A stretch of DNA of 57,421 nt. Source: Candidatus Komeilibacteria bacterium CG_4_10_14_0_2_um_filter_37_10. Its GTDB lineage: Bacteria > Patescibacteriota > Patescibacteriia > UBA1558. Position 1 is the stretch's first letter; each line of letters begins with the position of its first letter. The stretch spans positions 1 through 57,421 of the forward strand of contig PFPO01000073.1 of the NCBI GenBank assembly GCA_002793075.1. The letters run 5' to 3'. The translations under genes were made by a program, and so were the position numbers. Below are positions 7,317 to 57,421 of the stretch, piece by piece. Below the pieces are notes generated by a model that was given only the letters and a program-made list of their open reading frames with translations, made no database searches and was not told the origin of the DNA.

Positions 7317-8700
7317 AAAGAATTGGTTAAAAATTAAAAAAGTTTATTTATCTGGCATTGGTGGTATTGGCGTTTCTGCTTTAGCGCGTTTTTTTCATTA
7401 TCACGGTATTAGTATCATCGGTACTGAGATTTGTTCTTCCTCGATCACCGATAATCTGGAGTTAATCGGTATTAAAATTAATCGTAAACATTTAGCCACT
7501 AATATTACTACGGATATTGATTTATTTATTCATACACCAGCGATCAGTACAGATAATCCTGAATTATTAGCCGCCCAAAAATTAAATATTCCAGTTTATA
7601 GTTATCCAGCATTTCTTGGTGAATTGTCTAAACAGTATAAAACTATTGCTGTTTCCGGAACTCATGGTAAATCCACGACCACATCTTTAGTTGGTCTTTT
7701 TTTAACTGCTGGTAAAATAGATCCAACAATTATAGTAGGTAGTCAAGTAAATCATTTTGATCATAATTTTCGGTACGGTCAAAGCCCGTGGTTGGTAGTT
7801 GAAGCCTGTGAGTATCGTGGCCACATGCTTTATTTACAACCTGAGATTATCACGATTACCAATTTAGAAGCTGATCATTTAGATTATTACCGCGATCTTA
7901 ATGATATTGTTAAACATTTTGAAAAATTCATTCGTAAATTAAAAAGTCATCACCTCTGTTTGAATGTTGACGATCCAACGCTTCGCCACTTAGCTACTAA
8001 GAATGAATGTTTAACTTACGGTATTGAACAGCAGGCAAAGTTACAGGCGAGAAATATCAAGATTAAAGATCAAAAACAATGCTTTGATTTGTATTATGCC
8101 AATAAAAAGATTATTTCGTTATCTTTGTCTATTCCTGGACGTTTTAATATTTACAATACTTTAGCCGCTATCGCTTCCACCTGGTCATTTAAATTAGACC
8201 CCCGAGTTTATCAGCATGTCTTACAGACATTTGCTGGCTGTTGGCGTCGTTTTGAAATTTTGGGATCCTGGCAGCAGCAACCAAATACTTTGGTAATCTC
8301 GGACTACGCTCATCATCCGACAGCCGTAGCTGTTACTATCAAAGCAGCAAAAGAATTTTATCCGCATAAACGATTGGTAGTAGTTTTTCAGCCCCATCAG
8401 GTGCATCGTACGCTAAAGTTATTTAAAGAGTTTTCCCAATCTTTTACTTTAGCTGATGAATTAATACTCTGTAGTATTTATGGTGTTGTTGGGCGCGAGA
8501 ATGACAAGGAAAGTAAGGAAATATTAATTGATCAGCTAGCCACAGCTTGCCGTCAGGAATCCAAAGTTAGCGTTCGTGTCGAAAAAAATATTAGTCAATT
8601 AACCAATACCATTGAATCAATAATTAAGGCTAATGATTTAATATTAATCATCGGCGCCGGATCTATTGATCAGACAGTACGTCAATATTTAAAAATATGA
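7309..8700 (+). CDS. murC: UDP-N-acetylmuramate--L-alanine ligase
   Basis: GIGGIGVSALA Rossmann segment and Mur-ligase P-loop SGTHGKSTTTS. DYAHHP motif near the C-terminal domain. Confidence 0.9.
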   Translation: MVKKNWLKIKKVYLSGIGGIGVSALARFFHYHGISIIGTEICSSSITDNLELIGIKINRKHLATNITTDIDLFIHTPAISTDNPELLAAQKLNIPVYSYPAFLGELSKQYKTIAVSGTHGKSTTTSLVGLFLTAGKIDPTIIVGSQVNHFDHNFRYGQSPWLVVEACEYRGHMLYLQPEIITITNLEADHLDYYRDLNDIVKHFEKFIRKLKSHHLCLNVDDPTLRHLATKNECLTYGIEQQAKLQARNIKIKDQKQCFDLYYANKKIISLSLSIPGRFNIYNTLAAIASTWSFKLDPRVYQHVLQTFAGCWRRFEILGSWQQQPNTLVISDYAHHPTAVAVTIKAAKEFYPHKRLVVVFQPHQVHRTLKLFKEFSQSFTLADELILCSIYGVVGRENDKESKEILIDQLATACRQESKVSVRVEKNISQLTNTIESIIKANDLILIIGAGSIDQTVRQYLKI

Positions 8701-9668
8701 CCAAAGCTGAATTGTGTTTACAAAAGCTTAGGGAACTAACAGAGATTAAAGAAAATTATCCCTTGGCTAATTTAACATCTTATCACATCGGTGGTCCCGC
8801 AAAATATTATTGCCAATTAACCGAATTAAGATTAATTCCTCTTATTTGGCAACTAATCAAACAATGGCAAATGCCCCATTGTTTATTGGGTAGTGGATCT
8901 AATGTTTTGATTAATGATTTAGGCTATGAGGGACTCGTAATAAGAGTTGGTTTAAATAAAATTGATGTAAACGAGCAAACGATCGTTGCTAGTTCTGATA
9001 TTTCTCTAGTTTCTTTAGTAAGTACTGCTTTAGAAAATAATCTCAGTGGCTTAGAATTTGCTGTTGGTATTCCGGGATCAACTGGTGGTGCTGTGGTGGG
9101 TAATGCCGGAGCTTATGGCGGACAGATAGCAGATTTAGTTACTAATTGTCTAATATTGAATGAGGAATACAGATTAGTTACCTTAACGAAAGAACAACTA
9201 CAATTCAGTTACCGTGATAGTATTTTTAAACATCGAGATTTATTACTAATACAAACCACTTTTAATTTAGCTCCGGGTTTAAGCTCAGAAATTCAACGAA
9301 AAATGTTAGAGTATAATACTGATCGTTGGTCAAAACAACCAGCTTATCCTTCAGCTGGTAGTGTTTTTAAAAATATTGTTTTAACTGAGCAAGTTTTAGC
9401 AGTATTGAAAAAAACAATATCTCAAGAAATCCCAGATCAATATCGGCAATATGGTAAAATTCCTGCTGCTTGGTTGATAGATTTAGCTGGTTTAAAAGGA
9501 AAGTGTTTTGGCGGCGCCATGATTTCCGAAAAGCATGCTAATTTTATTATCAATTACAATCAAGCAACATCAGCTGATGTTATCCAAGCAATTAATTTTA
9601 TAAAAAATAAAGTTAATGATTTATTTCAAATTAAATTAGAAGAGGAAATCAGATATATTGGTTTTTGA
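8697..9668 (+). CDS. murB: UDP-N-acetylenolpyruvoylglucosamine reductase
   Basis: FAD-binding PCMH-type domain (GGPAKYY, LGSGSNVLI). C-terminal SAGSVFKN and HANFIIN motifs. ATGA overlap with murC. Confidence 0.9.
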   Translation: MTKAELCLQKLRELTEIKENYPLANLTSYHIGGPAKYYCQLTELRLIPLIWQLIKQWQMPHCLLGSGSNVLINDLGYEGLVIRVGLNKIDVNEQTIVASSDISLVSLVSTALENNLSGLEFAVGIPGSTGGAVVGNAGAYGGQIADLVTNCLILNEEYRLVTLTKEQLQFSYRDSIFKHRDLLLIQTTFNLAPGLSSEIQRKMLEYNTDRWSKQPAYPSAGSVFKNIVLTEQVLAVLKKTISQEIPDQYRQYGKIPAAWLIDLAGLKGKCFGGAMISEKHANFIINYNQATSADVIQAINFIKNKVNDLFQIKLEEEIRYIGF

Positions 9669-9670
9669 AA

Positions 9671-9700
9671 AAGCAGTGCTAATTATTAGCGCTGCTTTTT
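9671..9700. terminator. bidirectional hairpin between convergent murB and the orphan gene
   Basis: AAGCAGTGC (9671-9679) pairs with GCGCTGCTT (9689-9697): 9 bp including one G.U. Flanked by GAAAA and TTTTT. The 3' arm overlaps the last codons of the minus-strand orphan. Confidence 0.5.
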
Positions 9701-9952
9701 AAACCATTCATTGATTTGGGCATCTTTACCGTGTTGACAATAGATAGTAAAGCGTAGACTTTTATTTTTTTGTGCACTAGCTTCTAGGATGCGTAAATTC
9801 TTACGGCTAATACGCCAAGCTAATATTCTTTTCTCGGCTACCAGCAGATTATCGCATTGGGCGTCACTAGCTGAGCAGTCGGCAATAAGTAAATTAGCTA
9901 TCGCGGCATTAGTGTAATCATCAATCGGTTGTATGTACCACTGAGTAGTCAT
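9686..9952 (-). CDS. hypothetical protein (88 aa), orphan
   Basis: Only minus-strand gene within about 35 kb of plus-strand genes. AAAGGAGG sits 4 nt upstream of the ATG (complement of 9957-9964). No recognisable domain. Confidence 0.6.
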   Translation of the reverse strand: MTTQWYIQPIDDYTNAAIANLLIADCSASDAQCDNLLVAEKRILAWRISRKNLRILEASAQKNKSLRFTIYCQHGKDAQINEWFKKQR

Positions 9953-9992
9953 CGGACCTCCTTTTCTATCTTTGTACTACTATCTCTAATTA

Positions 9993-10021
9993 TTGTCAAT
10001 AATTATATTATCTGTTATATT
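9993..10021 (+). promoter_or_regulatory. candidate sigma70-type promoter for secA
   Basis: TTGTCA (9993-9998), 17-nt spacer, TATATT (10016-10021). The opposite strand reads TTGACA at 9994-9999, so the two -35 boxes overlap back to back. Confidence 0.35.
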
Positions 10022-10053
10022 AAGTCCAGTTTACTATTAATTTCTGCAAATAA

Positions 10054-12798
10054 ATGAGCTTACTTAATTTTATTTTCGGTGACGCAAATGAGAAATATAT
10101 CAAATCACTGCAACCACTAGTAGAACAGATAAACAAATTAGAAACAGACATTGGATTATTATCCAGCGAAGAGTTACGAAATAAAACCATTGAATTTAAG
10201 AAACGTTTAGTTGACGGTGAATCTCTCGATAATATTTTACCGGAGGCTTTTGCTGTGGTGCGCGAGGCCGCCAAAAGAACATTAAAGCAACGACACTTTG
10301 ATGTCCAATTGATCGGTGGCATAGTTTTACATCGTGGGCAGATAGCGGAGATGAGAACTGGTGAAGGAAAAACAATAACTGCTACTTTGCCAGTTTATCT
10401 AAATGCCTTAACCGGTAAGGGTGTCCATGTTGTCACGGTAAATGACTATCTAGCTAAACGTGATGCTACTTGGATGGGGCAAATTTATAATTATTTAGGT
10501 TTATCAGTTGGTGTCATTCAGCACGAAACAGCGTATTTGTACGATGCCCAGTTTGTTGATGAAAATTCTACCATTGATAAAATTCGTGATCAGGGCGTGG
10601 CAGTAGAACCAGAGTTACTTAAACCATGTTATCGTCAGGAGGCATATGCGGCTGATATTATTTATGGCACCAACAACGAATTTGGTTTTGATTATTTGAA
10701 AGATAATATGGTACCGAGTACGCAGCAAATGTCGCAGCGTGAACTATATTATGCCATTGTTGATGAAGTTGATTCGATTCTAATCGACGAAGCGCGAACG
10801 CCATTAATTATTTCCGCGCCAGCTGAGGAGTCTACTGACGAATACTATCATTTTGCGAAGATCGTTCGTAATTTACAAGTGAATTCTGATTATAATATTG
10901 ATGAAAAGCTCCGAGCTGTGACTTTGACTGAAGACGGTATGACGAAAGTGGAAAAGATTTTAGGTGTCGATAATATTTATCAAAGTAAGGGCTTACGAAC
11001 TGTTCATCATTTGGAACAAGCGCTGAAAGCTGAGGTTTTGTTTAAAAAGGATAAAGACTACGTAGTCAAAGACGATGAAGTAATTATTGTTGATGAATTT
11101 ACCGGTCGCATGATGTTTGGTCGTCGTTATTCTGAAGGACTACACCAAGCTATTGAAGCTAAGGAAGATGTCAAAATTCAAAAAGAAAGTTTAACCCTAG
11201 CTACTATTACTTTTCAAAATTATTTTCGCATCTATCAGAAACTAGCTGGCATGACCGGTACCGCAGCAACTGAAGCTGAAGAATTCGCGAAAATTTACAA
11301 GCTGGACGTTACCGTCATCCCGACGAATAAAGAGATTATTAGAATTGACCATAATGATTTAATCTATCAAGACGAGGCTAGTAAATTCAGAGCTATTGTT
11401 CAAGAAATAAAGAAACGTTATGAAAAGAAACAACCAGTCTTGGTTGGCACTATCTCAATCGCTAAAAATGAATTACTATCGGAGCTTTTGAAGCGCGAGG
11501 GCGTCCCTCATCAACTATTAAATGCTAAACAACACGAAAAAGAAGCTTCGACTATTGCCCAAGCCGGTAAATTACAGGCCGTAACTATTGCTACTAATAT
11601 GGCAGGTCGCGGTGTGGATATTATTTTAGGTGGCAACCCAGTTGATCAACAGGAAGCTGAACAAGTAAAATCATTGGGTGGACTGCTAGTCATCGGTACT
11701 GAAAGACATGAATCCCGACGCATAGATAATCAATTGCGTGGTCGCGCTGGGCGTCAAGGTGATCCCGGATCCACACTATTTTATGTTTCACTCGACGATG
11801 ATCTGATGCGTATCTTCGGCTCGGAAAGGATGAAATCTTTGATGAAGACTTTGAAGGTGCCTGAAGATATGCCGATTGAGAATGGCATGATTAGCAAGTC
11901 GATTGAGTCAGCGCAACGAAAAGTTGAGGGGCATAATTTTGATATTAGAAAGCATCTGGTTGAGTATGATGATGTGATTAATAAACATCGAGAGGTTATT
12001 TATCAACGACGAAAAAATATTTTACTGATGGCTGAAGGTCGCACTGATAATTTAAATTGGCTTAATATCGATGGCCAACCAATCAAAAGCTTATCCGATT
12101 ACATTGCCGATTTAATCAATCAAGAATTGGATCAGGTGATAAATTTTCATACTACGGCGGAAGGTCAACAGGACTATCAAGAGATATTGGAAACTTTGAA
12201 ATCAATATGTCAATTGGCAGATTCCGAGATTGCGGAGTACCACAAAATCATCAATGATCATGAGTTAGAATCGCATCAAATCAGACATCAATTGATTGAA
12301 CACTCGCGTCAGTTATTGCAAGCGAAATATACTGATTTGCAAGCCAAGTTCGCGGCGACTGTGGGCGATGCTACTGCTTGGTCGCGAGTGGAATTGTCAC
12401 TAATATTGCGGACGATTGATAATTTATGGATTGATCACTTAGAAGCTATTGATTATTTAAAGCAAGGTATTGGCTTGCGTGGTTACGGACAACGTGATCC
12501 GCTAGTAGAATACAAAAAGGAATCGTTTTTACTTTTTGATCAGTTGTTAGATTCCATTCAAAATGAAATTGTTTATAATATTTTTAAATTAGGCGAAACA
12601 ATAAATATCGGTGGCAAAGATTTAGCCAATCGTCCACTTAATTTAATCAAAAATAATCCCACTTCCCAATTTGCCCAGCAAGAGACTGAGCGTCAATCAG
12701 CGGTTACGAAAACTTTTAATAATGAACCCAAGGTAGGACGTAACGAGCCATGTCCGTGTGGTAGCGGGAAGAAATATAAAAAGTGTCATGGGGTGTAG
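10054..12798 (+). CDS. secA: preprotein translocase ATPase SecA
   Basis: 914 aa. Motor motifs [14 protein letters not shown] and [19 protein letters not shown], plus [11 protein letters not shown]-terminal zinc finger [14 protein letters not shown]. Confidence 0.97.
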
Positions 12799-18295: not shown

Positions 18296-20053
18296 ATGAT
18301 TACAGCCCAACAATTAAGAGAAAAATATACTACTTTTTTTGCCAGTAAAGGCCATCAAATCATTGATGGTGCTTCTTTGATTCCCGAAAATGATCCGTCG
18401 GTTTTGTTTACCACTGCCGGTATGCACCCACTTGTGCCTTTTTTATTAGGAAGCAAACATCCAAGTGGTAATAAACTAACAAGTTGTCAGCGTTGTATTA
18501 GAACTGGTGATATTGAAGAAGTAGGTGATGATACTCATCTGACGTTTTTTGAAATGCTGGGTAATTGGAGTTTAGGAGATTATTTTAAGGATGATGCTAT
18601 TGAATATAGTTGGGAATTTTTAACATCACCAAAGTGGCTAAATATTAATCCCCAAAAAATAGGTATAACTGTATTTGCCGGTGATCAGGATGCTTCAGTT
18701 GATGAAGAGTCAGTAAATAAATGGTTAAGTCTTGGTGTTCCTCAACATAAGATAGCTTATTTACCAAAGGAAAATAATTGGTGGGGCCCAGCTGGTCAGA
18801 CAGGACCTTGTGGACCTGATACGGAAATGTTTTATTATGTTGGTGATGGATTACCTTCGGAAAATTCCAATCCCGGCAATGACGAGAGTAATTGGGTAGA
18901 AATATGGAATGACGTATTTATGCAATACAGTAAAGAAGCTGATGGTAGTTATTTTGCTTTGGCACAAAAAAATGTTGACACGGGCATGGGACTAGAACGA
19001 ACATTAGCTGTAATCAATGGCTATCAGACTATTTATGAAACAGATGTTGTTAAACCAATTTATGATCTAGTGTATTCTTTAGCGCAAGATAAAAGCAATT
19101 TGAAAGCCATAAGAATTATTACTGATCATCTGCGAGCAGCCACATTTATCATTGGTGATGAGAGGGGAGTGATACCATCAAATACTGATCAAGGTTATGT
19201 TGTTCGCCGTTTAATTCGTTCCGCTATTCGTCGCGGACGAGAAGTAGGTATTGTTAATTCCTTTATTCCAGCAATTGCCGCAGAAACTATAAAATTATAT
19301 GCGCCGACGTACAATTGTTTAAAGCAAAATCAACAAAAAATACTGTCAGAGTTTTCGATCGAAGAAGAAAAATTTAAAAAAGTATTAGATCGGGGCGAAG
19401 AAATTATTCAGGAGTATGCCAGGCAAGGCTCTATTGATGGCGTGACAGCCTTTAAATTATATTCAACTTATGGATTTCCCTTAGAAGAAATACAAAGATC
19501 TAATATTCAGGTGGATGCTGAGCAATTTTTTGCTGAATTAAAAAAACACCAAGAGTTATCACGACAAGGGGCAGAGCAAAAATTTAAGGGTGGCTTAGCT
19601 GATAATTCGGAAATGGTAACTAAATTACATACCGCTACTCATTTATTGCACGCAGCTTTACGAAAAGTATTAGGCGAACATATTGCTCAAAAAGGGTCAA
19701 ATATAACCTCAGAAAGACTGCGCTTTGATTTTTCTCATCCCATTAAGTTAACTACTGACGAGCTGACAAAGGTGGAAAAATTAGTTAATGAGGCAATTCA
19801 GCAAAAATTAGCTGTTTCCTGGCAAGAATTATCTGTGGAAAAGGCCAAGGAGCAAGGTGCTTTGGGTTTATTCAATCAAAAATATGGTGAGCTAGTCAAA
19901 GTTTATACAGTAGGCAAAGATGATAGAATATTCTCCCGGGAAATTTGTGGTGGTCCACATGTGGCAAATACTGGTGAATTAGGTCATTTTAGTATCTTAA
20001 AGGAAGAAGCATCATCAGCCGGTGTACGCAGAATAAAATCTATCCTGAAATAG
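18296..20053 (+). CDS. alaS: alanine--tRNA ligase, short form (585 aa)
   Basis: Class II core FTTAGMHP, FFEMLGNWSLGDYFK, GPCGPDTEMFY and VDTGMGLER. Editing-site HTATHLLHAAL and CGGPHV. Ends at GVRRIKSILK with no C-Ala domain. The ATG at 18296 is preferred over the tracked start at 18242. Confidence 0.9.
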   Translation: MITAQQLREKYTTFFASKGHQIIDGASLIPENDPSVLFTTAGMHPLVPFLLGSKHPSGNKLTSCQRCIRTGDIEEVGDDTHLTFFEMLGNWSLGDYFKDDAIEYSWEFLTSPKWLNINPQKIGITVFAGDQDASVDEESVNKWLSLGVPQHKIAYLPKENNWWGPAGQTGPCGPDTEMFYYVGDGLPSENSNPGNDESNWVEIWNDVFMQYSKEADGSYFALAQKNVDTGMGLERTLAVINGYQTIYETDVVKPIYDLVYSLAQDKSNLKAIRIITDHLRAATFIIGDERGVIPSNTDQGYVVRRLIRSAIRRGREVGIVNSFIPAIAAETIKLYAPTYNCLKQNQQKILSEFSIEEEKFKKVLDRGEEIIQEYARQGSIDGVTAFKLYSTYGFPLEEIQRSNIQVDAEQFFAELKKHQELSRQGAEQKFKGGLADNSEMVTKLHTATHLLHAALRKVLGEHIAQKGSNITSERLRFDFSHPIKLTTDELTKVEKLVNEAIQQKLAVSWQELSVEKAKEQGALGLFNQKYGELVKVYTVGKDDRIFSREICGGPHVANTGELGHFSILKEEASSAGVRRIKSILK

Positions 20054-20104
20054 CTCTTGACTATTTCCGTGAATTCTAATAACATATTATAGCCCTTAAA
20101 TTAC

Positions 20105-20134
20105 TTGACTAGTTTGCAAAAAATATATTATACT
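20105..20134 (+). promoter_or_regulatory. candidate sigma70-type promoter for the infA-rpmJ-rpsM... operon
   Basis: TTGACT (20105-20110), 18-nt spacer, TATACT (20129-20134), in the 231-nt gap after alaS. Confidence 0.45.
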
Positions 20135-20284
20135 ATGCCAAGTAATAAGATTATCGAAAAAAAACCATAAAAATCGCCCACAAAAAAATTAATACAGTGA
20201 GACAACATGCATCGTTTACTAAGGAAGAGATCTGGTTAAAACCAAGCATTTTGAGTAAATGGTCTGTTTTTTTTAGTTATTTTA

Positions 20285-20521
20285 ATGAGTAATCTTGATT
20301 TTCAAACAAATAAAAAAGGTTTTATTGAAGTAGTTGGTGTTGTGACCGAATTACTACCCGCCGCAACATTCCAGGTAAAACTGGAAAATGAGCATGAGTT
20401 ACTGGCTCATTTATCTGGAAAAATGAGGATTAATCGCATTAAAATACTACCCGGTGATAAGGTCAAGCTAGAAATTAGTCCTTATGACCTCACCAAAGGT
20501 AGAATAACCTATCGATATTAA
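20285..20521 (+). CDS. infA: translation initiation factor IF-1
   Basis: S1-like OB fold. [48 protein letters not shown] is near-canonical IF-1. Confidence 0.93.
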
Positions 20522-20527
20522 AACATT

Positions 20528-20641
20528 ATGAAAGTTAGATCTTCAGTTAAAAAAATTTGTAAAGATTGTAAAATTATTCGACGTTCTGGACGGGTTGTTT
20601 GTATTTGTAAAAATCCTAAACACAAGCAAAGACAAGGCTAA
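20528..20641 (+). CDS. rpmJ: 50S ribosomal protein L36
   Basis: Not in the ORF track. My translation gives [37 protein letters not shown] (37 aa) with the CxxC...CxxxxH zinc-ribbon pattern. Conserved infA-rpmJ-rpsM order. Confidence 0.9.
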
Positions 20642-20671
20642 ATAAAATTACGTAATATAATAAAATTACTT

Positions 20672-21061
20672 ATGGCAAGAATCGCAAACATCAATATACC
20701 CAATGAAAAAAGAGTTGTTATTAGCTTAACTTACCTTTTTGGTATCGGCCGAACATTATCCCAGAAAATTTTAACTGATCTGAAAATTGATATCAGTAAA
20801 CGAGTTAAAGATTTAACAGAGGAAGAGTTAAAATTGATTCGTGATCATTTAGCCAAAAATTATAAAGTTGAAGGTGATTTACGACGAGAAATCTTGATGA
20901 ATATCAAAAGATTAAAAGAAATCAGTTCCTATCGTGGCACTCGTCACGCCCGTGGTCTACCGGCTCGCGGTCAAAGAACCAAAACCAATTCTCGTACTGT
21001 CCGCGGCAATGTTCGTCGCACAATGGGTAGTGGTCGTGCTAAATCAGCGGAAAAAACTTAA
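20672..21061 (+). CDS. rpsM: 30S ribosomal protein S13
   Basis: [10 protein letters not shown]...[23 protein letters not shown] is canonical S13. Confidence 0.95.
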
Positions 21062-39138: not shown

Positions 39139-39194
39139 ATTTCGAAATTAAAGGCTCACTGTTTAGATTTTAGCAGTTTTTCTTAGATTTAGCA
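39139..39194. promoter_or_regulatory. candidate operator elements upstream of the radical SAM operon
   Basis: A perfect 10-bp palindrome ATTTCGAAAT (39139-39148). A direct repeat TTAGATTTTAGCA (39163-39175) / TTAGATTTAGCA (39183-39194) has 20-nt phasing, and its second copy overlaps the -35 box. Confidence 0.3.
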
Positions 39195-39211
39195 ATATTT
39201 TGTGCTATAAT
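39183..39211 (+). promoter_or_regulatory. candidate promoter giving a leaderless radical SAM mRNA
   Basis: TTAGAT (39183-39188), 17-nt spacer, TATAAT (39206-39211) preceded by TGtGc, then 6 nt to the ATG at 39218. Confidence 0.45.
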
Positions 39212-39217
39212 AGAATA

Positions 39218-39712
39218 ATGATTGAAGCCATTCTTAAGCAAATTAAAAATGGTGGTTATCAATGCACTTTGTGTCATCACAATTGTTTTTTAAAAAATGG
39301 ACAAACTGGTCTTTGTCGTACCAGAAAAATGATTAATAATCAACTAATGGTTTTGAATTATAATCAAATAGTTGCTTTACAAGTTGATCCGATAGAAAAA
39401 AAGCCATTGTATCATTTTTTACCTGGTTCCCAGACTCTATCTTTAGCTTGTTGGGGTTGTAATTTTAAGTGTTTGAACTGCCAAAATTTCAATTTGTCGC
39501 AGGAAGAAGAGTCAGTCACCGATCAAGCTATTGATGTTAATGAAGTAATTAACAGGGCAAAACAACTAGGGTGTTTATCAATTGCTTATACTTATACCGA
39601 ACCAACAATTTTTCTCGAAACTGCTTTACCAATTATGCAAGCGGCTAAGAAAAATGGTTTATTTAACATTTGGGTGAGCAATGGTTTTTTTCTGAACAAT
39701 GTTGGCAATTAA
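39218..39712 (+). CDS. radical SAM enzyme, N-terminal fragment (frame 0)
   Basis: Contains the 4Fe-4S/SAM motif CNFKCLNC. Terminates 7 codons after the T7 run (GFFLNNVGN*). Confidence 0.7.
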   Translation: MIEAILKQIKNGGYQCTLCHHNCFLKNGQTGLCRTRKMINNQLMVLNYNQIVALQVDPIEKKPLYHFLPGSQTLSLACWGCNFKCLNCQNFNLSQEEESVTDQAIDVNEVINRAKQLGCLSIAYTYTEPTIFLETALPIMQAAKKNGLFNIWVSNGFFLNNVGN

Positions 39713-40224
39713 TTAAACCATATTTGGATGCTATCAATATTGATCTAAAGTTTGGTACTGATTATCAATATCAAAAAATTTGCCACGGTCGCTATCAACC
39801 AGTATGGAACAATATTGTCCAAGTAAATAACTCACCGGTTCATTCAGAAATTACCAATTTAATTATCCCGGGAATTAACGATGATCAAAAATCTTTTTTG
39901 ACGTTGGTTAAAAAAATTTATCAGCTTAATAAATTTATCCCCGTACATTTGAGTAAATATTTTCCCGTGGAACCAAATCTCCTATCAGTAGTAACTTCTG
40001 ATAAGCAATTAATAAATTTTTATCAGCAAGCCAGAAAGATTGGATTGCCGTATATCTACCTTGGTAATGTAAACAATGAAAAATATAACTCCACTTACTG
40101 TCCTCATTGTTTAACGACTATTATCACGCGCATTGGTTATCGCACTATTAATTATCTAATCAATAATCGTTGTCCTCGTTGTCTTTATTCAATTAACATT
40201 TATTGTAATGAGCAAACTATTTAA
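39670..40224 (+). CDS. radical SAM enzyme, C-terminal fragment (-1 frame)
   Basis: The tracked start is a TTG and the 184-aa translation contains no other Met, so independent initiation is doubtful. The sequence continues the family alignment (SEQCWQLIKPYLDAINIDLK). Confidence 0.6.
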   Translation: MGEQWFFSEQCWQLIKPYLDAINIDLKFGTDYQYQKICHGRYQPVWNNIVQVNNSPVHSEITNLIIPGINDDQKSFLTLVKKIYQLNKFIPVHLSKYFPVEPNLLSVVTSDKQLINFYQQARKIGLPYIYLGNVNNEKYNSTYCPHCLTTIITRIGYRTINYLINNRCPRCLYSINIYCNEQTI

Positions 40225-41617
40225 AAGTATTATTATTAGCATTATCTTGTTACTCACTACTAACATCTTATTAGTGCACGCACAAATAGAGTATGAATCA
40301 AATCCCCTTTTTAATGCTAATTTGATTATTTCTGATCAAGATTTTACCAACTATCAGTCAATGACTTTGGAAGAAATACAAAGCTTTTTAGAAACTAAGG
40401 GTACTTTGGGTAGTTATATTGATCCCATGGCAAATCTGCGAGCCTCTTTTATTATTTTCACTGCTGCTAACGATTATCAAATAAATCCGCAAGTATTGTT
40501 AACTTTAATTCAGAAGGAGCAAAGTTTAGTAGATGATCCGTCCCCTAGCAAAAGACAATTGGACTGGGCCGCCGGCTATAGTTGTTACAACGGATCGTGT
40601 GATGAAAATTATCGCGGTTTTACTATGCAAATTAGAGGTGCAGCAAGAAAATTTATGGTTGGTTATTGGCCTGATTTGGTAAGTTCTAATTGTACTTTTA
40701 CTAATTGGTGTGTCAATAAACCCAAAAGGACGCAAGATAATATTTTGGTTACCCCCGGAAGCAAAGCAACTTGTGCTCTGTATACTTACAATCCCTATCG
40801 CGGTAATACCATAGTCAATGGCTTAAAAATTGGCGCTAATTATAATTTCTGGAAAATCTGGAATCGTTGGTTTGGCATCAGTAAATATCCGGATGGTACT
40901 TTGCTCAAAGCTAAGGGACAGGCTAAGGTTTTTGTCATTAAAGATGGCCAAAAAAGATGGATAACTTCCTTCGCCGCCCTGACTACGAGATTTAATCCCA
41001 ATAATATTATTGAAGTAACTGAGGAAATGCTTAGTAGCTATCCTGAAGGACCTGCTATCCGTTATCCGCTTTTTACGCTACTAAAAACACCGAACGGTTC
41101 AATTTATTTAATTGATCGTGATAGTAAACGAATAATTGTCTCTTGGGAAGTTTTTCGCCTTATTGGTTTCAATCCTGAGGAAATTGAAGAGGTTGATTTT
41201 ACTGATGTTAACGATATTCCTGACGGTATTCCTATTACCCTCACAGACTCGTATCCTACAGGCGCAGTTCTCAAGGTGCAAGGTAATAATGATCTATATT
41301 ATGTAGAAAATGGTTATCGTTACCCAATTATTGATGAGATTATTCGTCTTAATCAATATTCTTATCTAAAACCAATAACGGTTACTACGCTAGAGATTGA
41401 AAAGTACCAACTGCGGGAGCAAATAAAATTTAGTGATGGGACGTTATTAAAGGCTAGCAATGATAATAAAGTCTATGTTATCTCCCAGGGAACAAGACGA
41501 TTGATACCAACGGCTGATATCTTTGTGAATTATGGATATAGTTGGTCCAATATAATCGAAGTCAGTCAACAAGTATTAGAATTACATCCCTTAGGTGAAT
41601 CATTAAGTAATTTGTAA
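40208..41617 (+). CDS. secreted protein: unknown N-terminal domain plus four tandem repeats of about 55-60 aa
   Basis: Signal peptide MSKLFKSIIISIILLLTTNILLVHA/Q. Cys-containing N domain (INPQVLLTLIQKEQSL...GYSCYNGSCDENYRG). The C-terminal repeats each follow the pattern G(T/A)(L/V)LK...(V/L)Y(V/L)I..G.(K/R)R.I. Confidence 0.7.
   Translation: MSKLFKSIIISIILLLTTNILLVHAQIEYESNPLFNANLIISDQDFTNYQSMTLEEIQSFLETKGTLGSYIDPMANLRASFIIFTAANDYQINPQVLLTLIQKEQSLVDDPSPSKRQLDWAAGYSCYNGSCDENYRGFTMQIRGAARKFMVGYWPDLVSSNCTFTNWCVNKPKRTQDNILVTPGSKATCALYTYNPYRGNTIVNGLKIGANYNFWKIWNRWFGISKYPDGTLLKAKGQAKVFVIKDGQKRWITSFAALTTRFNPNNIIEVTEEMLSSYPEGPAIRYPLFTLLKTPNGSIYLIDRDSKRIIVSWEVFRLIGFNPEEIEEVDFTDVNDIPDGIPITLTDSYPTGAVLKVQGNNDLYYVENGYRYPIIDEIIRLNQYSYLKPITVTTLEIEKYQLREQIKFSDGTLLKASNDNKVYVISQGTRRLIPTADIFVNYGYSWSNIIEVSQQVLELHPLGESLSNL
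40886..41614 (+). repeat. four tandem protein-level repeats inside the secreted protein
   Basis: Units start near aa 227 (YPDGTLLKAKGQAKVFVIKDGQKRWI), 287 (PLFTLLKTPNGSIYLIDRDSKRII), 349 (YPTGAVLKVQGNNDLYYVENGYRYPI) and 408 (FSDGTLLKASNDNKVYVISQGTRRLI). Confidence 0.7.
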
Positions 41618-41620
41618 TTT

Positions 41621-42397
41621 ATGTCCTTAGTTTATTCGTCAATATTGCCTCATCCACCACTACTAGTACCCTTCTTTTTAACGAAAAACAAATTGTTGTT
41701 AAAAAATCTTTTGGTTAGTATTAATCAAGTAAAGGAATCAATTTATCATAAAAATCTGGATACCATCATTATTATTGCTCCTCACACTCAACTAGTCAGT
41801 GGTACCATTGAAATAAATATTGCTAATCAGTTTACATTAGACTTCAGCTCCTTTGGTGATTTGTCTACTTATAAAAATTATCCATCAGATTTGGACTTAA
41901 TTGGTTTACTTCATGATAGCGATGTTAAAAATCTATCTTTCCAATATCAAGATCGGGTTAACTATGATTACGCGATACCCCTAGCTCTTTTAGACAACAA
42001 TTTAGCGGTAAAGTACGTTTTAATTGGTGTCAATAACTGTTCTGACGAACAAATAACAAGTTTTGCTACAAGTTTAACGAATATTTTGCATGTAGAAAAG
42101 AAAAGAGTTGGAATGATTATTTCCGGTGATTTATCACATCAAATTGAAAAAAGTAATAGCAAACTTAAACTATTGGCTGCGGATAATTTAATTTTGGATT
42201 GGTTAAAGAATAAAGAAAGTTTTATTAATAGTAATCAATTATTAACAAGTCATGAATTTAGCCAAGCTGGTATTTGTCTCTATCAACCACTATTACTCGG
42301 TTTAACGATTCTGAGTAATATTAATTATCAATGTAATATCTTACGAACGGATAGTTTAGCCGGAATAAACTATTTAATTGCGGAATTCATTATTTAG
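41621..42397 (+). CDS. class III extradiol dioxygenase subunit B-like / Memo-like protein (candidate AmmeMemoRadiSam protein B)
   Basis: The N-terminus SILPHPPLLVP, then IIIAPHT and ISGDLSH, resemble the LigB/Memo superfamily. The usual DHG segment reads DYDYAIPL, so metal ligands may be altered. Confidence 0.5.
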   Translation: MSLVYSSILPHPPLLVPFFLTKNKLLLKNLLVSINQVKESIYHKNLDTIIIIAPHTQLVSGTIEINIANQFTLDFSSFGDLSTYKNYPSDLDLIGLLHDSDVKNLSFQYQDRVNYDYAIPLALLDNNLAVKYVLIGVNNCSDEQITSFATSLTNILHVEKKRVGMIISGDLSHQIEKSNSKLKLLAADNLILDWLKNKESFINSNQLLTSHEFSQAGICLYQPLLLGLTILSNINYQCNILRTDSLAGINYLIAEFII

Positions 42398-47491: not shown

Positions 47492-48174
47492 TGTAAAATA
47501 ATTTTTTCAATTATAATATCCTCTACCGGGTAGTCATTAGCACCGATGGTACTATTCTCAATGGCGTCGAGAGTTTCCCAGCCACTAATAACATAACCAA
47601 AATTTGTATGGACGCCATCTAACCATGGCGTTTGTTCAGCGGTCACGATGAAAAACTGACTGCCATTAGTATTGGGTCTCGCAGTATTAGCCATCGCTAG
47701 CGACCCTCGCACTAATTTATGTTGGTTAAATTCGTCGACAAAAGCATAACCAGGTCCTCCGGTGCCATCATTACTACGATCATTGTCTTTGGAGTTGGGA
47801 TCACCACCTTGAATCATAAAATCTTTAATAACTCGATGAAATTTACTATTGTTATAAAAATTTTGTTCCGCTAAGTAGAGAAAATTATTTACAGTTATTG
47901 GTGATTCATCATTATACAATTGGACTTTTATTTCCCCTTTATTCGTGACAATTGTGGCTACAGAATATTTGGTTAATAGTTGAGGTTGTTGGCTAACTGG
48001 TAAGATTTCGTCATTTTTCACAGTTTTTTCGGTAGTTTGTTGTTGTACGTTATTGTTATTTTCCATATTTTTTAAATTATTATTAGTATTTACTGCCTTT
48101 TGCTGATTTTGACAACCGCTAAGTAACAAAATAAAAGCGGCAATTAAAAATATTTGTTTTTTCATTATTGACAT
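47488..48174 (-). CDS. cyclophilin-type peptidyl-prolyl cis-trans isomerase, predicted lipoprotein
   Basis: Lipobox LLLSGC. Cyclophilin core FHRVIKDFMIQGGDP...GSLAMANTARPNTNGSQFFI. Confidence 0.9.
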   Translation of the reverse strand: MSIMKKQIFLIAAFILLLSGCQNQQKAVNTNNNLKNMENNNNVQQQTTEKTVKNDEILPVSQQPQLLTKYSVATIVTNKGEIKVQLYNDESPITVNNFLYLAEQNFYNNSKFHRVIKDFMIQGGDPNSKDNDRSNDGTGGPGYAFVDEFNQHKLVRGSLAMANTARPNTNGSQFFIVTAEQTPWLDGVHTNFGYVISGWETLDAIENSTIGANDYPVEDIIIEKIILQ

Positions 48175-48196
48175 TTTAATAGTTAATTAATATAAT
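48168..48196 (+). promoter_or_regulatory. consensus sigma70 promoter for tRNA-Gln
   Basis: TTGACA (48168-48173), exactly 17 nt, TATAAT (48191-48196). The tRNA 5' end lies 20 nt downstream of the -10 box. The -35 overlaps the first codons of the divergent PPIase gene. Confidence 0.65.
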
Positions 48197-48216
48197 ATTT
48201 TCGCAAGTTATTATGA

Positions 48217-48290
48217 TCGGGGGTCGTCTAACGGCAGGACAGCGGGTTTTGGTCCCGCTAATCGGGGTTCGAATCCCTGCCCCCGAACCA
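48217..48290 (+). tRNA. tRNA-Gln (anticodon UUG), CCA encoded
   Basis: Hand-folded cloverleaf. Acceptor TCGGGGG/CCCCCGA, 3-bp D stem GTC/GAC, anticodon stem GCGGG/CCCGC with loop TT-TTG-GT. T arm CGGGG-TTCGAAT-CCCTG, discriminator A, then CCA. Confidence 0.9.
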
Positions 48291-48365
48291 CGTCATAATT
48301 CATCTCATAACTGCGTGTTTCAAATCAAGTTTGAACCACTCCGTCATTCGATAAATTATTCCTTT

Positions 48366-48421
48366 AAAATCTTCACTTTTCTTCTCCCGCCAGAAGCGGG
48401 GTCAGACCAAGTGAAGATTTT
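48366..48421. terminator. 56-nt long hairpin, possible bidirectional terminator between tRNA-Gln and rplI
   Basis: AAAATCTTCACTT (48366-48378) is perfectly complementary to AAGTGAAGATTTT (48409-48421). An inner stem CCCGC-cagaa-GCGGG sits at 48386-48400. A4/T4 lie at the base of the stem. Confidence 0.45.
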
Positions 48422-48465
48422 GTTAATATCGTATCGGGCGGTAGAATGATCAGATGTTATTTTTC

Positions 48466-48492
48466 AACAGAATTGATATTTCTGTTTTTTTT
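48466..48492 (+). terminator. intrinsic terminator (plus strand)
   Basis: AACAGAA (48466-48472), loop ttgatat, TTCTGTT (48480-48486), then T6 (48487-48492). Confidence 0.55.
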
Positions 48493-48521
48493 ATTTAATC
48501 AAAAACAACCTACTAACTATT

Positions 48522-48959
48522 TTATTTTTTACTAATGTTTATTTTTAGTTTTACTGCTTGTTTATTGAGAATAATTTCTATTTCCTGTGAACCAAGTTTT
48601 TTTACGTTCTGATTAATTTGCAAACTTTTATTAGGTAAATCAATTTTGAATTGCTCTTTAATAGAATCAACTATTTGCTGTTCATTGATGGCGGCGTACA
48701 GATGATTTTGATCATTGACCCGTACTTTGATCTGTAAAGTTGCATTAGTTAAAATATGGATGATTTTCTCTTGCTTAGGTAAATCAACTAACTGCTTATT
48801 ATCTTTTTGTTTATTTTGTTGCACTAAACGGATATTCGTTGGTGTCGGTAGGAAAGCAAGTTTTTGGGGTATTAAAAAATTTAATGCTAATCCATCTTTC
48901 ACTTCTTTAATTTCACCGACCCTACCATGAATACAATTCTTGATAAAAAGTATTTGCAT
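48522..48959 (-). CDS. rplI: 50S ribosomal protein L9
   Basis: The N-terminal domain MQILFIKNCIHGRVGEIKEVKDGLALNFLIPQKLA is typical L9. 145 aa. Confidence 0.88.
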   Translation of the reverse strand: MQILFIKNCIHGRVGEIKEVKDGLALNFLIPQKLAFLPTPTNIRLVQQNKQKDNKQLVDLPKQEKIIHILTNATLQIKVRVNDQNHLYAAINEQQIVDSIKEQFKIDLPNKSLQINQNVKKLGSQEIEIILNKQAVKLKINISKK

Positions 48960-54639: not shown

Positions 54640-56260
54640 TTTGAATTTGGTAAAGACTCATTTGACCATACCCGATCGTTGTTTTTTCCAAATACCACTG
54701 ATAACGACGGTATTTACTATTTAAATAGGCTAAATCCTTTTCCGCGTAATTATAATCCCACCAGTAAACGGGATATTCTTGAAGTAAGGGAGTTATGCGT
54801 TGATAATCAACATCGTAAAATAAATTAAAAATTGTTTGGCGTGCCGGAAAAAATATTTTGTCATTACGACCAGCAATAATAATAGCGCGCTGATCTACTC
54901 GTTCTAACACGCTACTGGCAATATTCTGATAGTTTAAAATATTATTTTTGATAGCGATAATCCCCTCTTGTTTTTCTAAATAGACAGCGGGAAAACTATA
55001 CGCTGACCAAACTAACAAAATACTAATAAAAAATAAATACGTAGCTACTTTTACACGCTTCGTTAATAATCTAATACCCAGCGCTATGGTGATTGACATC
55101 AGAATATAGATGGGTAACCAATAGCGCACATAAGAAGTGCCGATAGTTATCGCTCGCGGATTGGGATTATCACTAAATTTCCAACTACCATAATAAACTA
55201 GAACGATAACGCTAACAACCATAAAAATTATCAAGATTAATAAGTTCTTGCGATAAACTTTATTTTGCTTATTTAATAGGGATAATAATATTGGCCATAA
55301 GGCTAAAATAAATAAAGTGGTTTGCCAAGAAAATATCAATTTCAAATAATTCTGCGCATTAAATATAATAGTTGATAAATCAAAACCAAAAGGTAATAAA
55401 TATTTTCCAATAAACCATTGTTCGGACAATATGGAGTTACTTACTATTTGATAACCGATATTTAGGGGGGAACCAAAGTTAATAATATTGAAATAAAAAA
55501 ACGGTAGGAGTGCTAAACAAAAAGTTGGCAAAGCAAACAATATTTGTGACCAGCAATATTTTTTTTTGTTGAAAATTAGCAGTATTAATAAAAGTGGACC
55601 CAGCCAAATAAATTCTGATGGTCGAATGAGTACTGCTAAGCCCACAAACAAACCAGAGAGCATCATTATTAAATTACTTTTTTTCTCAATAGCCAGATAG
55701 CCAAAGTAAATTGCCATAAATATTAAGGAACAAACAGGTACATTCGGCACCATGGGGCGGCTAGCATAATACCAATACGCTGGTGTAATCATAATTAATA
55801 TAACTGACATCAAACCAACTCGTGGACCATAAATCTTCTTGAGTAATAAGTATAGTAAGATTAAAGAAGTTGTCGTCAATAACGAGGAAAATAATAAAAT
55901 TAAACTATCATTATGAAAAATTTTCGCAAAGGATGCCGCTAAATACGATAAACCGATAAATCCAGTTGGTACTAAATTATGATTGACAATTTTTAAACTG
56001 CGCGGAGAAACTAAATCACCTGCTAATAATGAGGGATTACTAAATTGCAAAAAAGTATCTTGATGATAATAATTCTGCGCTGCCCAATAATAGGCTGTTT
56101 CGTCGGGAGAATTAAAAATTAAACGGTTAGTAGCGCTATCGTTGCTCGTAAATGGCAAAAAATTAAAGTAATTAATAATCAAAAAAAAGATGATGGCTGT
56201 TAGCAAAACAACCACAAAATGCCAGTCAATGTTTAAATCTTTAATCTTTCTTTCTAGCAT
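54623..56260 (-). CDS. GT-C fold glycosyltransferase, ArnT/PMT (GT39/GT83)-like
   Basis: 545 aa and about 12 TM segments. A DE motif in the first extracytoplasmic loop (NSPDETAYYWAAQ). C-terminal soluble domain. Confidence 0.65.
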   Translation of the reverse strand: MLERKIKDLNIDWHFVVVLLTAIIFFLIINYFNFLPFTSNDSATNRLIFNSPDETAYYWAAQNYYHQDTFLQFSNPSLLAGDLVSPRSLKIVNHNLVPTGFIGLSYLAASFAKIFHNDSLILLFSSLLTTTSLILLYLLLKKIYGPRVGLMSVILIMITPAYWYYASRPMVPNVPVCSLIFMAIYFGYLAIEKKSNLIMMLSGLFVGLAVLIRPSEFIWLGPLLLILLIFNKKKYCWSQILFALPTFCLALLPFFYFNIINFGSPLNIGYQIVSNSILSEQWFIGKYLLPFGFDLSTIIFNAQNYLKLIFSWQTTLFILALWPILLSLLNKQNKVYRKNLLILIIFMVVSVIVLVYYGSWKFSDNPNPRAITIGTSYVRYWLPIYILMSITIALGIRLLTKRVKVATYLFFISILLVWSAYSFPAVYLEKQEGIIAIKNNILNYQNIASSVLERVDQRAIIIAGRNDKIFFPARQTIFNLFYDVDYQRITPLLQEYPVYWWDYNYAEKDLAYLNSKYRRYQWYLEKTTIGYGQMSLYQIQNVKNK

Positions 56261-56266
56261 CTTTTC

Positions 56267-56275
56267 ATTATATCA
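56267..56275 (-). promoter_or_regulatory. extended -10 element giving a leaderless GT-C mRNA
   Basis: The minus strand reads TGaTATAAT (56275-56267), then gaaaag (6 nt), then the ATG at 56260. Confidence 0.4.
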
Positions 56276-56305
56276 AAATATTAGTGATTATGATAAAATA
56301 ATAAG

Positions 56306-57421
56306 ATGAAATTGAATAAATGGCTCCTGAGTTTACTGTTGCTAATTATTACTACCCTATCATTGTTTGCGCCTTGGGGATGGTTAAAATTATCTTTGGC
56401 AATTTTAAATTTGCTAACACTGTCCATTATTTATGGCTATTGGCAAGAAGGTAAAAAGCAAATTTTAGTTAATTTATTATCAGGATATTTATTACTATTC
56501 TCTCTCATTGTCATTATTAATGCTCTGCTGTTATTTTATTGGGAAATTAGTTATTTAAGTAACCTCATACTTTATTTAATATTTGTTGCTGGTGCTCTGA
56601 TTATTATTAAACAAAAGGAGATCGTTGGCGAGATAAATTTTTCTTGGCCCGTTAATTTTTTACATCCTACTAAAAAAATTGTGATTTATCTATTGTATTG
56701 GTTAATTATCTGTTCCCTAATTATTCTCTTTACGCAAATTTTTTTTCATCGTAGTGAGCAAATAATTTTTTCGATTTGGCAAATATTACCGTCGAATTTT
56801 TTACTTTTCTATCTATTGCTCATCATCAGTCTATTTGTTTATTTAACAGTTGCTACTACTGGTAAAAATATTGCCCTAATGTCTATTCTTTTTTTAAGTT
56901 CTGGTTTGGGAGTAATGATCTACCGATTAAATTACGGATTTGATCCTTTTATTCATCAAGCTACAGAAAGTATTATCTGGGGGCAAGGATTTGTGACACC
57001 GCGTCCGATCTATTACCTTGGTTATTATGGAATTATTAATTTCTTTCAGCATTTTTTATCCCTCAGCAATGTTCTTATCGATCGTTATATTACCATCATC
57101 AATTATGCTATTATTTTGCCTCTGACTATCAATCAGTGGTCAACCATTAAAAGGTATCATTACTGGCCAGCCGCACCATTATTTTTACTACTTTTACCCT
57201 TAACGACCATCGCTTTAAATACGCCGCAAGCTCTAGCTAATGTTTTGTTACTTATTACTATTTTTTTGTTACTAGCTGATGATCTCAGAAATAAAAATTA
57301 CTTATTACTATTACTGGGACTGACAACGATATTGATTCATCCGTTAAGCGGCATACCATTAATTTTCTGTTTGCTCTTTTATTTCTATCATTTCTATGTT
57401 AGCGACAAAACTAAAAAAAAT
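56306..57421 (+). CDS. polytopic membrane protein, unknown function (partial; continues beyond the window)
   Basis: Absent from the ORF track because it has no stop in the window. I translated 372 uninterrupted codons from the ATG at 56306 (MKLNKWLLSLLLLIITTLSL...). They contain many hydrophobic helices. TAAAAT lies 6 nt upstream of the ATG. Confidence 0.6.
   Translation, partial: MKLNKWLLSLLLLIITTLSLFAPWGWLKLSLAILNLLTLSIIYGYWQEGKKQILVNLLSGYLLLFSLIVIINALLLFYWEISYLSNLILYLIFVAGALIIIKQKEIVGEINFSWPVNFLHPTKKIVIYLLYWLIICSLIILFTQIFFHRSEQIIFSIWQILPSNFLLFYLLLIISLFVYLTVATTGKNIALMSILFLSSGLGVMIYRLNYGFDPFIHQATESIIWGQGFVTPRPIYYLGYYGIINFFQHFLSLSNVLIDRYITIINYAIILPLTINQWSTIKRYHYWPAAPLFLLLLPLTTIALNTPQALANVLLLITIFLLLADDLRNKNYLLLLLGLTTILIHPLSGIPLIFCLLFYFYHFYVSDKTKKN

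Follow-up and report, generated by a model that had tools for sequence, protein, structure and literature searches.

Genes of Buchnera and Blochmannia reportedly carry frameshifts in poly(A) tracts, in accounts attributed to Tamas et al. in PNAS in 2008 and Wernegreen et al. in Mol Biol Evol in 2010. The endosymbiont frameshifts that are rescued lie in tracts of about 9-10 or more nt, longer than the one described here. Our locus, a radical SAM (rSAM) gene of Candidatus Komeilibacteria bacterium CG_4_10_14_0_2_um_filter_37_10, is like these cases in that, in a small AT-rich genome, one base has been gained or lost within an A/T homopolymer of an otherwise intact open reading frame (ORF), with rescue by polymerase or ribosome slippage theoretically possible. 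It is unlike them in that the tract is 7 nt, the shift occurs in no relative and relatives have lost the rSAM gene outright, and hence there is no sign of selection keeping the frameshifted gene.

The -1 frameshifting sites of dnaX, IS911 and IS3 share with our locus an X_XXY_YYZ heptamer that is in register with the zero frame, as well as a zero-frame stop close by, whereas our locus has no hairpin or pseudoknot, no functional SD context, no conservation and no evidence for a role of the short product. Transcriptional slippage at 9A/9T runs (IS elements, Thermus dnaX; PMC1088944) is comparable in that one extra U in a coding T run restores the frame, but the run here is 7 nt as against at least 9, has no hairpin immediately upstream and is not conserved. 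The rSAM enzyme of the AmmeMemoRadiSam system (TIGR04337) is the family to which the gene itself is closest: the rebuilt protein is full length by score, has the Cys motifs and is encoded in an operon with a LigB/Memo-like gene. The differences from that system are the frameshift, the lowest score of the copies compared (249 versus 302-358 bits), the lack of a called AMMECR1 gene within ~10 kb on either side and a 469-aa gene that separates the rSAM gene from the Memo-like gene.

A first-pass annotation, made from the letters alone, had left three explanations for the split gene: a homopolymer assembly error, a very recent pseudogene, or programmed -1 ribosomal or transcriptional slippage acting as an expression switch. 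Here we weigh these and other readings. Coordinates are those of the window, by which we mean the whole stretch of DNA analysed (57,421 nt of contig PFPO01000073.1; 33.7% GC), and the features of the locus all lie on its + strand.

Results

Structure and identity of the split gene

The upstream ORF (39218-39712, frame 0, 164 aa) encodes the N-terminal half of an rSAM enzyme. The lesion is a homopolymer of exactly seven T residues (39685-39691) with G and C on its sides, and in the frame set by the ATG at 39218 the site reads GGT TTT TTT CTG AAC AAT GTT GGC AAT TAA. The zero-frame product ends in NGLFNIWVSNGFFLNNVGN, six out-of-frame codons (LNNVGN) being followed by the premature TAA at 39710-39712, the seventh codon past the second TTT. 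Re-read from 39691 in the -1 frame, the DNA gives TCT GAA CAA TGT and stays open until the stop at 40222-40224; this downstream half (39691-40224, 177 codons plus stop) extends from SEQCWQLIKPYLDAINIDLK to both C-terminal CxxC pairs. The rebuilt protein, counted from the ATG at 39218, has 158 + 177 = 335 aa, and on conceptual translation a T8 repair gives the same product as a -1 slip. Its junction-crossing stretch contains WVSNGFFSEQCWQLIK, and the trans-frame peptide of the conceptual fusion is NGLFNIWVSNGFFSEQCWQLIK(PYLDAINIDLK). The first-pass annotation had described the same arrangement, and its structural claims held throughout: the GGT TTT TTT codons put T_TTT_TTT in the X_XXY_YYZ register of the upstream frame, frame 0 stops seven codons on, the -1 shift rebuilds 335 aa open to 40224 and neither half has a second stop. 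Both halves are free of further indels as well. The motifs that the annotation named were likewise found in their respective halves, DPIEKKPL and CNFKCLNC in the upstream half, which also has the N-terminal Cys cluster, and the terminal CxxC pairs, both kept, in the downstream half.

The downstream half was said to lack an ATG, and indeed its translation contains no Met and hence its frame no ATG; taken as a mechanical ORF, it begins with the TTG at 39670. As there is no in-frame ATG and gene starts in this genome are almost always ATG, we rejected a two-piece enzyme with an independently translated downstream half. A missing RBS was not counted for or against this possibility, since the genome generally lacks SD sequences. 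A public collection lists the upstream half as a 164-aa protein of its own (P0123), and the downstream half appears in public annotation in 184-aa (TTG 39670) and 166-aa (TTG 39724, NCBI) versions. No public entry for either half appears to be flagged as part of one frameshifted gene.

Given the rebuilt sequence, we compared it with protein families. The fusion matched NCBIfam TIGR04337 (AmmeMemoRadiSam system radical SAM enzyme) with 249.2 bits against a curated cut-off of 220 and in one stretch (fusion residues 8-326, model positions 6-329 of 349), and it also matched Pfam Radical_SAM. Neither half alone is a complete member of TIGR04337, and the ORF as it stands in the genome is not intact, being broken by the T7 frameshift and the stop at 39710-39712. 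Alignment with 21 full-length homologues (42-48% identity) was gap-free over the junction, where NIWVSNGFF|SEQCWQLIKPYLDAI aligns with homologue stretches such as NVWVSNGFFSDETWEIISPYLDAI. All 64 invariant columns of the 22-sequence alignment are retained in the fusion, and the cluster motif CX3CX2C is present (CNFKCLNC, C81-x3-C85-x2-C88). The gap-free alignment and the retention of every invariant residue argue that the ancestral gene was one ORF and that one missing base is the sole visible lesion. Thus, the view of the first-pass annotation that one rSAM gene has been split by a single-base frameshift was right.

The orthologues read GGA TTT TTT TCT GAA (G-F-F-S-E, with an in-frame T7) in L014, GGT TTC TTT TCT GAC in L013 and GGT TTT ATG AGT AAA in L011, where the window has GGT TTT TTT -CT GAA. 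Judged by these codons, the T7 is one T short of the expected in-frame GGT TTT TTT TCT (G-F-F-S).

The operon and its neighbour genes

A candidate promoter was read from the sequence upstream of the rSAM gene. It consists of an extended -10 element with TATAAT (TGTGCTATAAT, 39201-39211), which stops 7 nt before the ATG at 39218 and is overlapped by a promoter-like site that a consensus scan placed at 39189-39216. The 7-nt spacing makes a leaderless operon mRNA probable, with rSAM as its first gene. The ~50 bp at 39167-39216 are 88% identical to positions 5153-5201 of L019, a syntenic locus of a close relative, directly 5' of its 470-aa gene.

The second gene (40208-41617, 469 aa), whose start overlaps the rSAM stop, encodes a secreted-looking protein with no family match. 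We used it as the syntenic marker for closer relatives: its orthologues are 80% identical in L019 (81% by BLASTP, P0126), 51-57% identical in L020, L021 and L024 and 40-43% identical in L011 and L013, and several Candidatus Komeilibacteria MAGs have orthologues of 51-58% identity. Motifs of the form ...Y.I..G.RR.I... recur along the 470-aa protein, and a precomputed PF05108 match exists for a few homologues.

The third gene (41621-42397, 258 aa) is intact and LigB/Memo-like (PF02900 at 35 bits). It is probably the 'protein B' partner of the AmmeMemoRadiSam system, to judge from its family matches; it scored 19 bits against TIGR04336, under the cut-off of 26, and its orthologues in L013, L020 and L024 also match PF01875 Memo. 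The Memo-like partner is very divergent throughout the clade (24-27% identity between any two, with the L011 copy matching no NCBIfam model) and is therefore uninformative about decay of the cassette. No called gene in window positions 29670-50224, about 10 kb on each side, had an AMMECR1 Pfam match.

The cassette is conserved in Patescibacteria. It consists of an rSAM gene, a gene for a ~440-480-aa protein with a signal-peptide-like N-terminus and a LigB/Memo-like gene, with no AMMECR1 nearby, and was followed at window 39218-42397, L011 6001-9384, L013 6001-12796 and L019-L024. It is not strictly contiguous in L013, where a ClpB gene lies between rSAM and the 439-aa/Memo-like pair (7589-10207). 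The window itself is tightly packed: apart from 20053-20672, 48174-48522 and 56260-57421, no sizeable part of it lacks an ORF of at least 90 aa.

Loss of the gene in close relatives

L019, L020 and L021 are syntenic with the window: M23 peptidase, GltX and WecG are encoded on one strand, and on the opposite strand the 470-aa protein, the LigB/Memo-like protein, PriA (L019 and L021), Def and Fmt. The L024 contig begins inside the gene before the 470-aa gene, and only the right-hand synteny is visible there. At the position expected for rSAM these four loci have only 120, 161, 536 and ~80 bp, and tblastn found no rSAM remnant in any of the four gaps. As the upstream stretch of L019 is 88% identical to that of the window, L019 seems to have kept the same promoter and to have had the first ORF removed from behind it. 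No rSAM protein more than 48% identical to the window copy was found among 5.8 billion proteins, and hence the organism of L019 has no close copy at another place in what has been assembled. Genome contigs searched with the fused protein gave only relatives of 42-44% identity (a Woesearchaeota MAG and an Endomicrobia MAG), and metagenome contigs gave none, the source organism being absent from both collections.

An intact rSAM gene is found in the same cassette of the more distant L011 and L013. L023, which falls inside the clade, has rSAM at the same position and in frame at the site of the T7. Almost all genes of this 11.6-kb locus (JGI 3300045909, Ga0496406_005735) are in two or more pieces, among them rSAM, the 470-aa gene, LigB, PriA, Fmt and PPIase, a pattern that could stem from error-rich long-read assembly or from wholesale decay of the genome. 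Because the fragmentation extends to nearly all genes of the contig, its broken rSAM gene was not counted as a further pseudogene. L014 was dropped as a synteny reference, its downstream gene being ~18% identical and not an orthologue of the 470-aa gene.

A neighbour-joining tree of the 470-aa protein had the form ((window,L019),(L021,(L023,(L020,L024)))), with L011 and L013 as outgroups. Because rSAM is present in both outgroups, in the window and also in L023, this topology requires that the gene was completely deleted at least three times independently. By this comparison the rSAM gene is dispensable in the closest relatives. The first-pass annotation had held that decay in relatives would mark a plain pseudogene; the result goes further, with outright loss in L019, L020, L021 and L024. 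The possibility that it had raised of a very recent pseudogene is supported by the single lesion, the long branch of the window copy and the deletion of the gene in the closest relatives.

Divergence of the window copy

The TIGR04337 scores given above compare the window copy with six relatives. Among 100 columns with at least 90% conservation, the window rSAM deviates at 11 and the others at 0-7. Its identity to all others is 43.5-48%, against 47-58% among those others themselves (the error-ridden copy of L023 excepted), in a homologue set that was chosen by similarity to the window rSAM. Its 469-aa neighbour is no farther from the outgroups than are the L019 and L020 orthologues and shows no window-specific acceleration. 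These comparisons give modest evidence that the window rSAM, the most divergent family member compared, has been under relaxed constraint, although lineage-specific adaptation instead of relaxed selection could also account for its faster divergence. As all copies of the locus are 99.99-100% identical, there is no divergence from which selection since the frameshift could be measured.

The T7 run in other contigs and in the rest of the window

Protein look-ups returned ten contigs from different samples (ENA, Logan, JGI and NCBI; assembled by MEGAHIT, SPAdes or Logan), all of which match the window at 99.99-100% identity across as much as 20 kb. Every one of the nine further contigs that span the site has T7, giving with the window ten sequences at the consensus level. 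Three contigs carry differing private SNPs, at 33206, 37067 and 37256, and so are independent samplings of one near-clonal population. The intact 335-aa sequence was absent from ~15 billion proteins, in which the two half-proteins are present as separate entries. JGI metagenome contigs gave no matches when scanned for both flanks separated by any 5-10 nt, an uninformative result, that collection probably being without these samples; the flank-plus-insert pattern for T8 alleles does work on local contigs.

Homopolymers of this kind are common in the window, which contains 40 A7, 17 A8, 3 A9, 34 T7, 11 T8 and 2 T9 runs and none of 10 or more. On the coding strand there are 94 A/T runs of at least 7, including 27 T7, 40 A7, nine T8/T9 and many A8/A9. 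Apart from that at 39685-39691, none of the coding-strand runs of at least 7 sits in a frameshifted ORF. The other overlapping ORF pairs of the window are complete unrelated genes (FtsW/MurG, NUDIX/GNAT and MnmA/AlaRS), none of which is split. The frameshift is real, specific to this gene and fixed at the consensus level.

Search for slippage signals

In E. coli, U_UU.U_UU.U without stimulators is among the motifs with more than 0.10% frameshifting, the background being ~0.055% and unstimulated motifs about 2-10 times background (PMC4066793). In most genomes selection against slippage-prone A/T runs is usually visible from ~9 nt, and ORFs disrupted at A/T runs are possibly restored in mRNA (Baranov et al., PMC1088944). 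The run spectrum of the window, with nothing of 10 or longer, fits this 9-nt selection footprint, and the T7, which has no upstream hairpin, is below the ~9-nt length criterion for frequent transcriptional slippage.

The slippery register that the first-pass annotation pointed out is present, at a frequency no higher than expected by chance. The coding sequence of the window contains 15 T7 runs that start at codon position 3 (xxT TTT TTT, Phe-Phe), the commonest T7 register, and the other 14 lie in ORFs without a frameshift. Moreover, an ancestral G-F-F-S written with T8 that loses one base necessarily leaves T7 in the slippery register.

A stimulatory RNA structure would be expected 5-9 nt 3' of the heptamer. 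Downstream RNA folds (39692-39740, 39692-39760 and 39685-39790) were no more stable than dinucleotide shuffles (z -0.07 to -0.34), and the same was true of upstream or spanning folds (39635-39691, 39650-39691 and 39660-39730; z +0.38, +0.65 and -1.04). No terminator-like hairpin was found near the T7. An SD-like GGGTGAG lies 7 nt 5' of the T7 and consists of conserved W-V-S codons, for which relatives have TGGGTCTCT, TGGGTTTCT and TGGGTAAGT. In the window an SD-like 4-mer lies in the 20 nt before only 2 of 49 gene starts, which makes stimulation by SD-anti-SD pairing implausible. No orthologue carries the frameshift: L011, L013, L014 and L023 are in frame at the DNA level and the 21 homologues are gap-free. 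All accessory features of programmed recoding that were tested are missing from the site. Background slippage may yield some full-length product, which should be well under 1%.

Discussion

The T7 rSAM gene is, in our judgement, quite likely a genuine, fixed, recent and plain pseudogene. One T would have been deleted from a coding T8 (GGT TTT TTT TCT to GGT TTT TTT CT), probably through replication slippage on the homopolymer in an AT-rich genome, and the first gene of the operon would thereby have been inactivated. Translation from the ATG at 39218 would halt at the TAA at 39710-39712 and leave a 164-aa stub that keeps the Fe-S cluster motifs but has lost the second half of the barrel and is presumably inactive. 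The downstream half, having no ATG, is probably not made separately. Any full-length protein would come from unprogrammed background slippage alone, which for U_UUU_UUU without stimulators is of the order of 0.1-0.5% in E. coli. The recency of the event would follow from the single lesion and from the 64 family-invariant residues, none of which has been lost. The frameshift would also fit a trend seen throughout the clade, in which a dispensable rSAM gene has been lost repeatedly, as one more loss caught at an early stage.

There are points against a pseudogene. A single lesion with both halves otherwise open is equally expected of a gene still in use, and after a -1 slip both tRNA-Phe would again be perfectly paired, which makes some full-length protein physically possible (PMC4066793). 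The alternative to be taken most seriously is a leaky but still useful gene, in which unprogrammed -1 slippage, an extra U added by RNA polymerase or both would supply enough enzyme for both halves to stay under selection. We consider this unlikely. The heptamer is in the correct register for such perfect re-pairing, and the >0.10% frameshifting of U_UU.U_UU.U in E. coli without stimulators (PMC4066793) would give it a basis, but unstimulated heptamers there reach only about 2-10 times the 0.055% background (PMC4066793). The warning of Baranov et al. about restoration in mRNA at A/T runs would apply, except that T7 is under the ~9-nt footprint length (PMC1088944). The allele is fixed in every sample (at the consensus level) with one lesion and all invariant residues retained, as a used gene would be; against this stand the absence of a hairpin on either side, the closest relatives that live without rSAM and the position of the window copy as the most eroded member of the family. 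The 27 T7 and 40 A7 coding-strand runs, with 15 of the T7 in the same register, argue further that slippage at such runs must be low, as otherwise all of those genes would suffer. It is doubtful that the locus, in a Patescibacteria lineage with hardly any SD use and a great many U7/A7 runs, is a CPR counterpart of the slippage-rescued endosymbiont genes, with background -1 slippage or a U inserted by RNA polymerase on an unusually short tract maintaining a frameshifted allele.

A phase-variable switch, in which slipped-strand mispairing would convert T7 (off) to T8 (on) and back in a population holding both, is highly improbable. Homopolymer tracts are the classic substrate and the off state is one repeat unit from the intact frame, but all ten site-spanning sequences (the window and nine contigs, at the consensus level) have T7 and none of the ~15 billion proteins is the T8 product. 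T7 and T8 tracts occur throughout the genome without evidence of switching, the relatives delete rSAM rather than toggle it, and the enzyme would seem to be of a housekeeping type and not a surface or restriction function.

There is hardly any room for an evolved signal, be it for -1 ribosomal frameshifting or for transcriptional slippage, by which the ratio of 164-aa to 335-aa product would be set, the third of the explanations left by the first-pass annotation. What could be read as such a signal, the in-register heptamer, the zero-frame stop 7 codons downstream and the SD-like GGGTGAG 7 nt upstream, loses its force on comparison: the heptamer occurs 15 times in the coding sequence of the window, SD-like sequences precede 2 of 49 starts and GGGTGAG is merely W-V-S codons, there is no structure up- or downstream (z -1.04 to +0.65), and the shift is not conserved, L011, L013, L014 and L023 being in frame and the 21 homologues gap-free. 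Nor did the assembly-error explanation survive, by which the true run is T8 and the gene intact: homopolymers are error-prone on some platforms and a one-base repair would suffice, but T7 is shared by the window and nine more contigs, which stem from different runs and were built by three assemblers, private SNPs mark separate samplings, nine T8/T9 and many A8/A9 runs are in frame with no other gene split, and ~15 billion proteins do not include the intact one, which makes an artefact all but untenable.

With a plain pseudogene as the preferred reading, the frameshifted rSAM gene belongs among ordinary, well-known features. In an AT-rich genome an in-register slippery heptamer where a gene is broken does not count as evidence for recoding, because the heptamer is the usual Phe-Phe codon pair. 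For annotation, the public 164-aa and 166/184-aa proteins merit merging and flagging as one frameshifted pseudogene. For the Komeilibacteria-like clade, the comparison indicates at least three independent losses of the rSAM gene from the rSAM/470-aa/Memo-like cassette, with the window copy seen mid-loss. As the Memo-like and 470-aa genes persist after rSAM loss, neither of them depends on the radical SAM enzyme.
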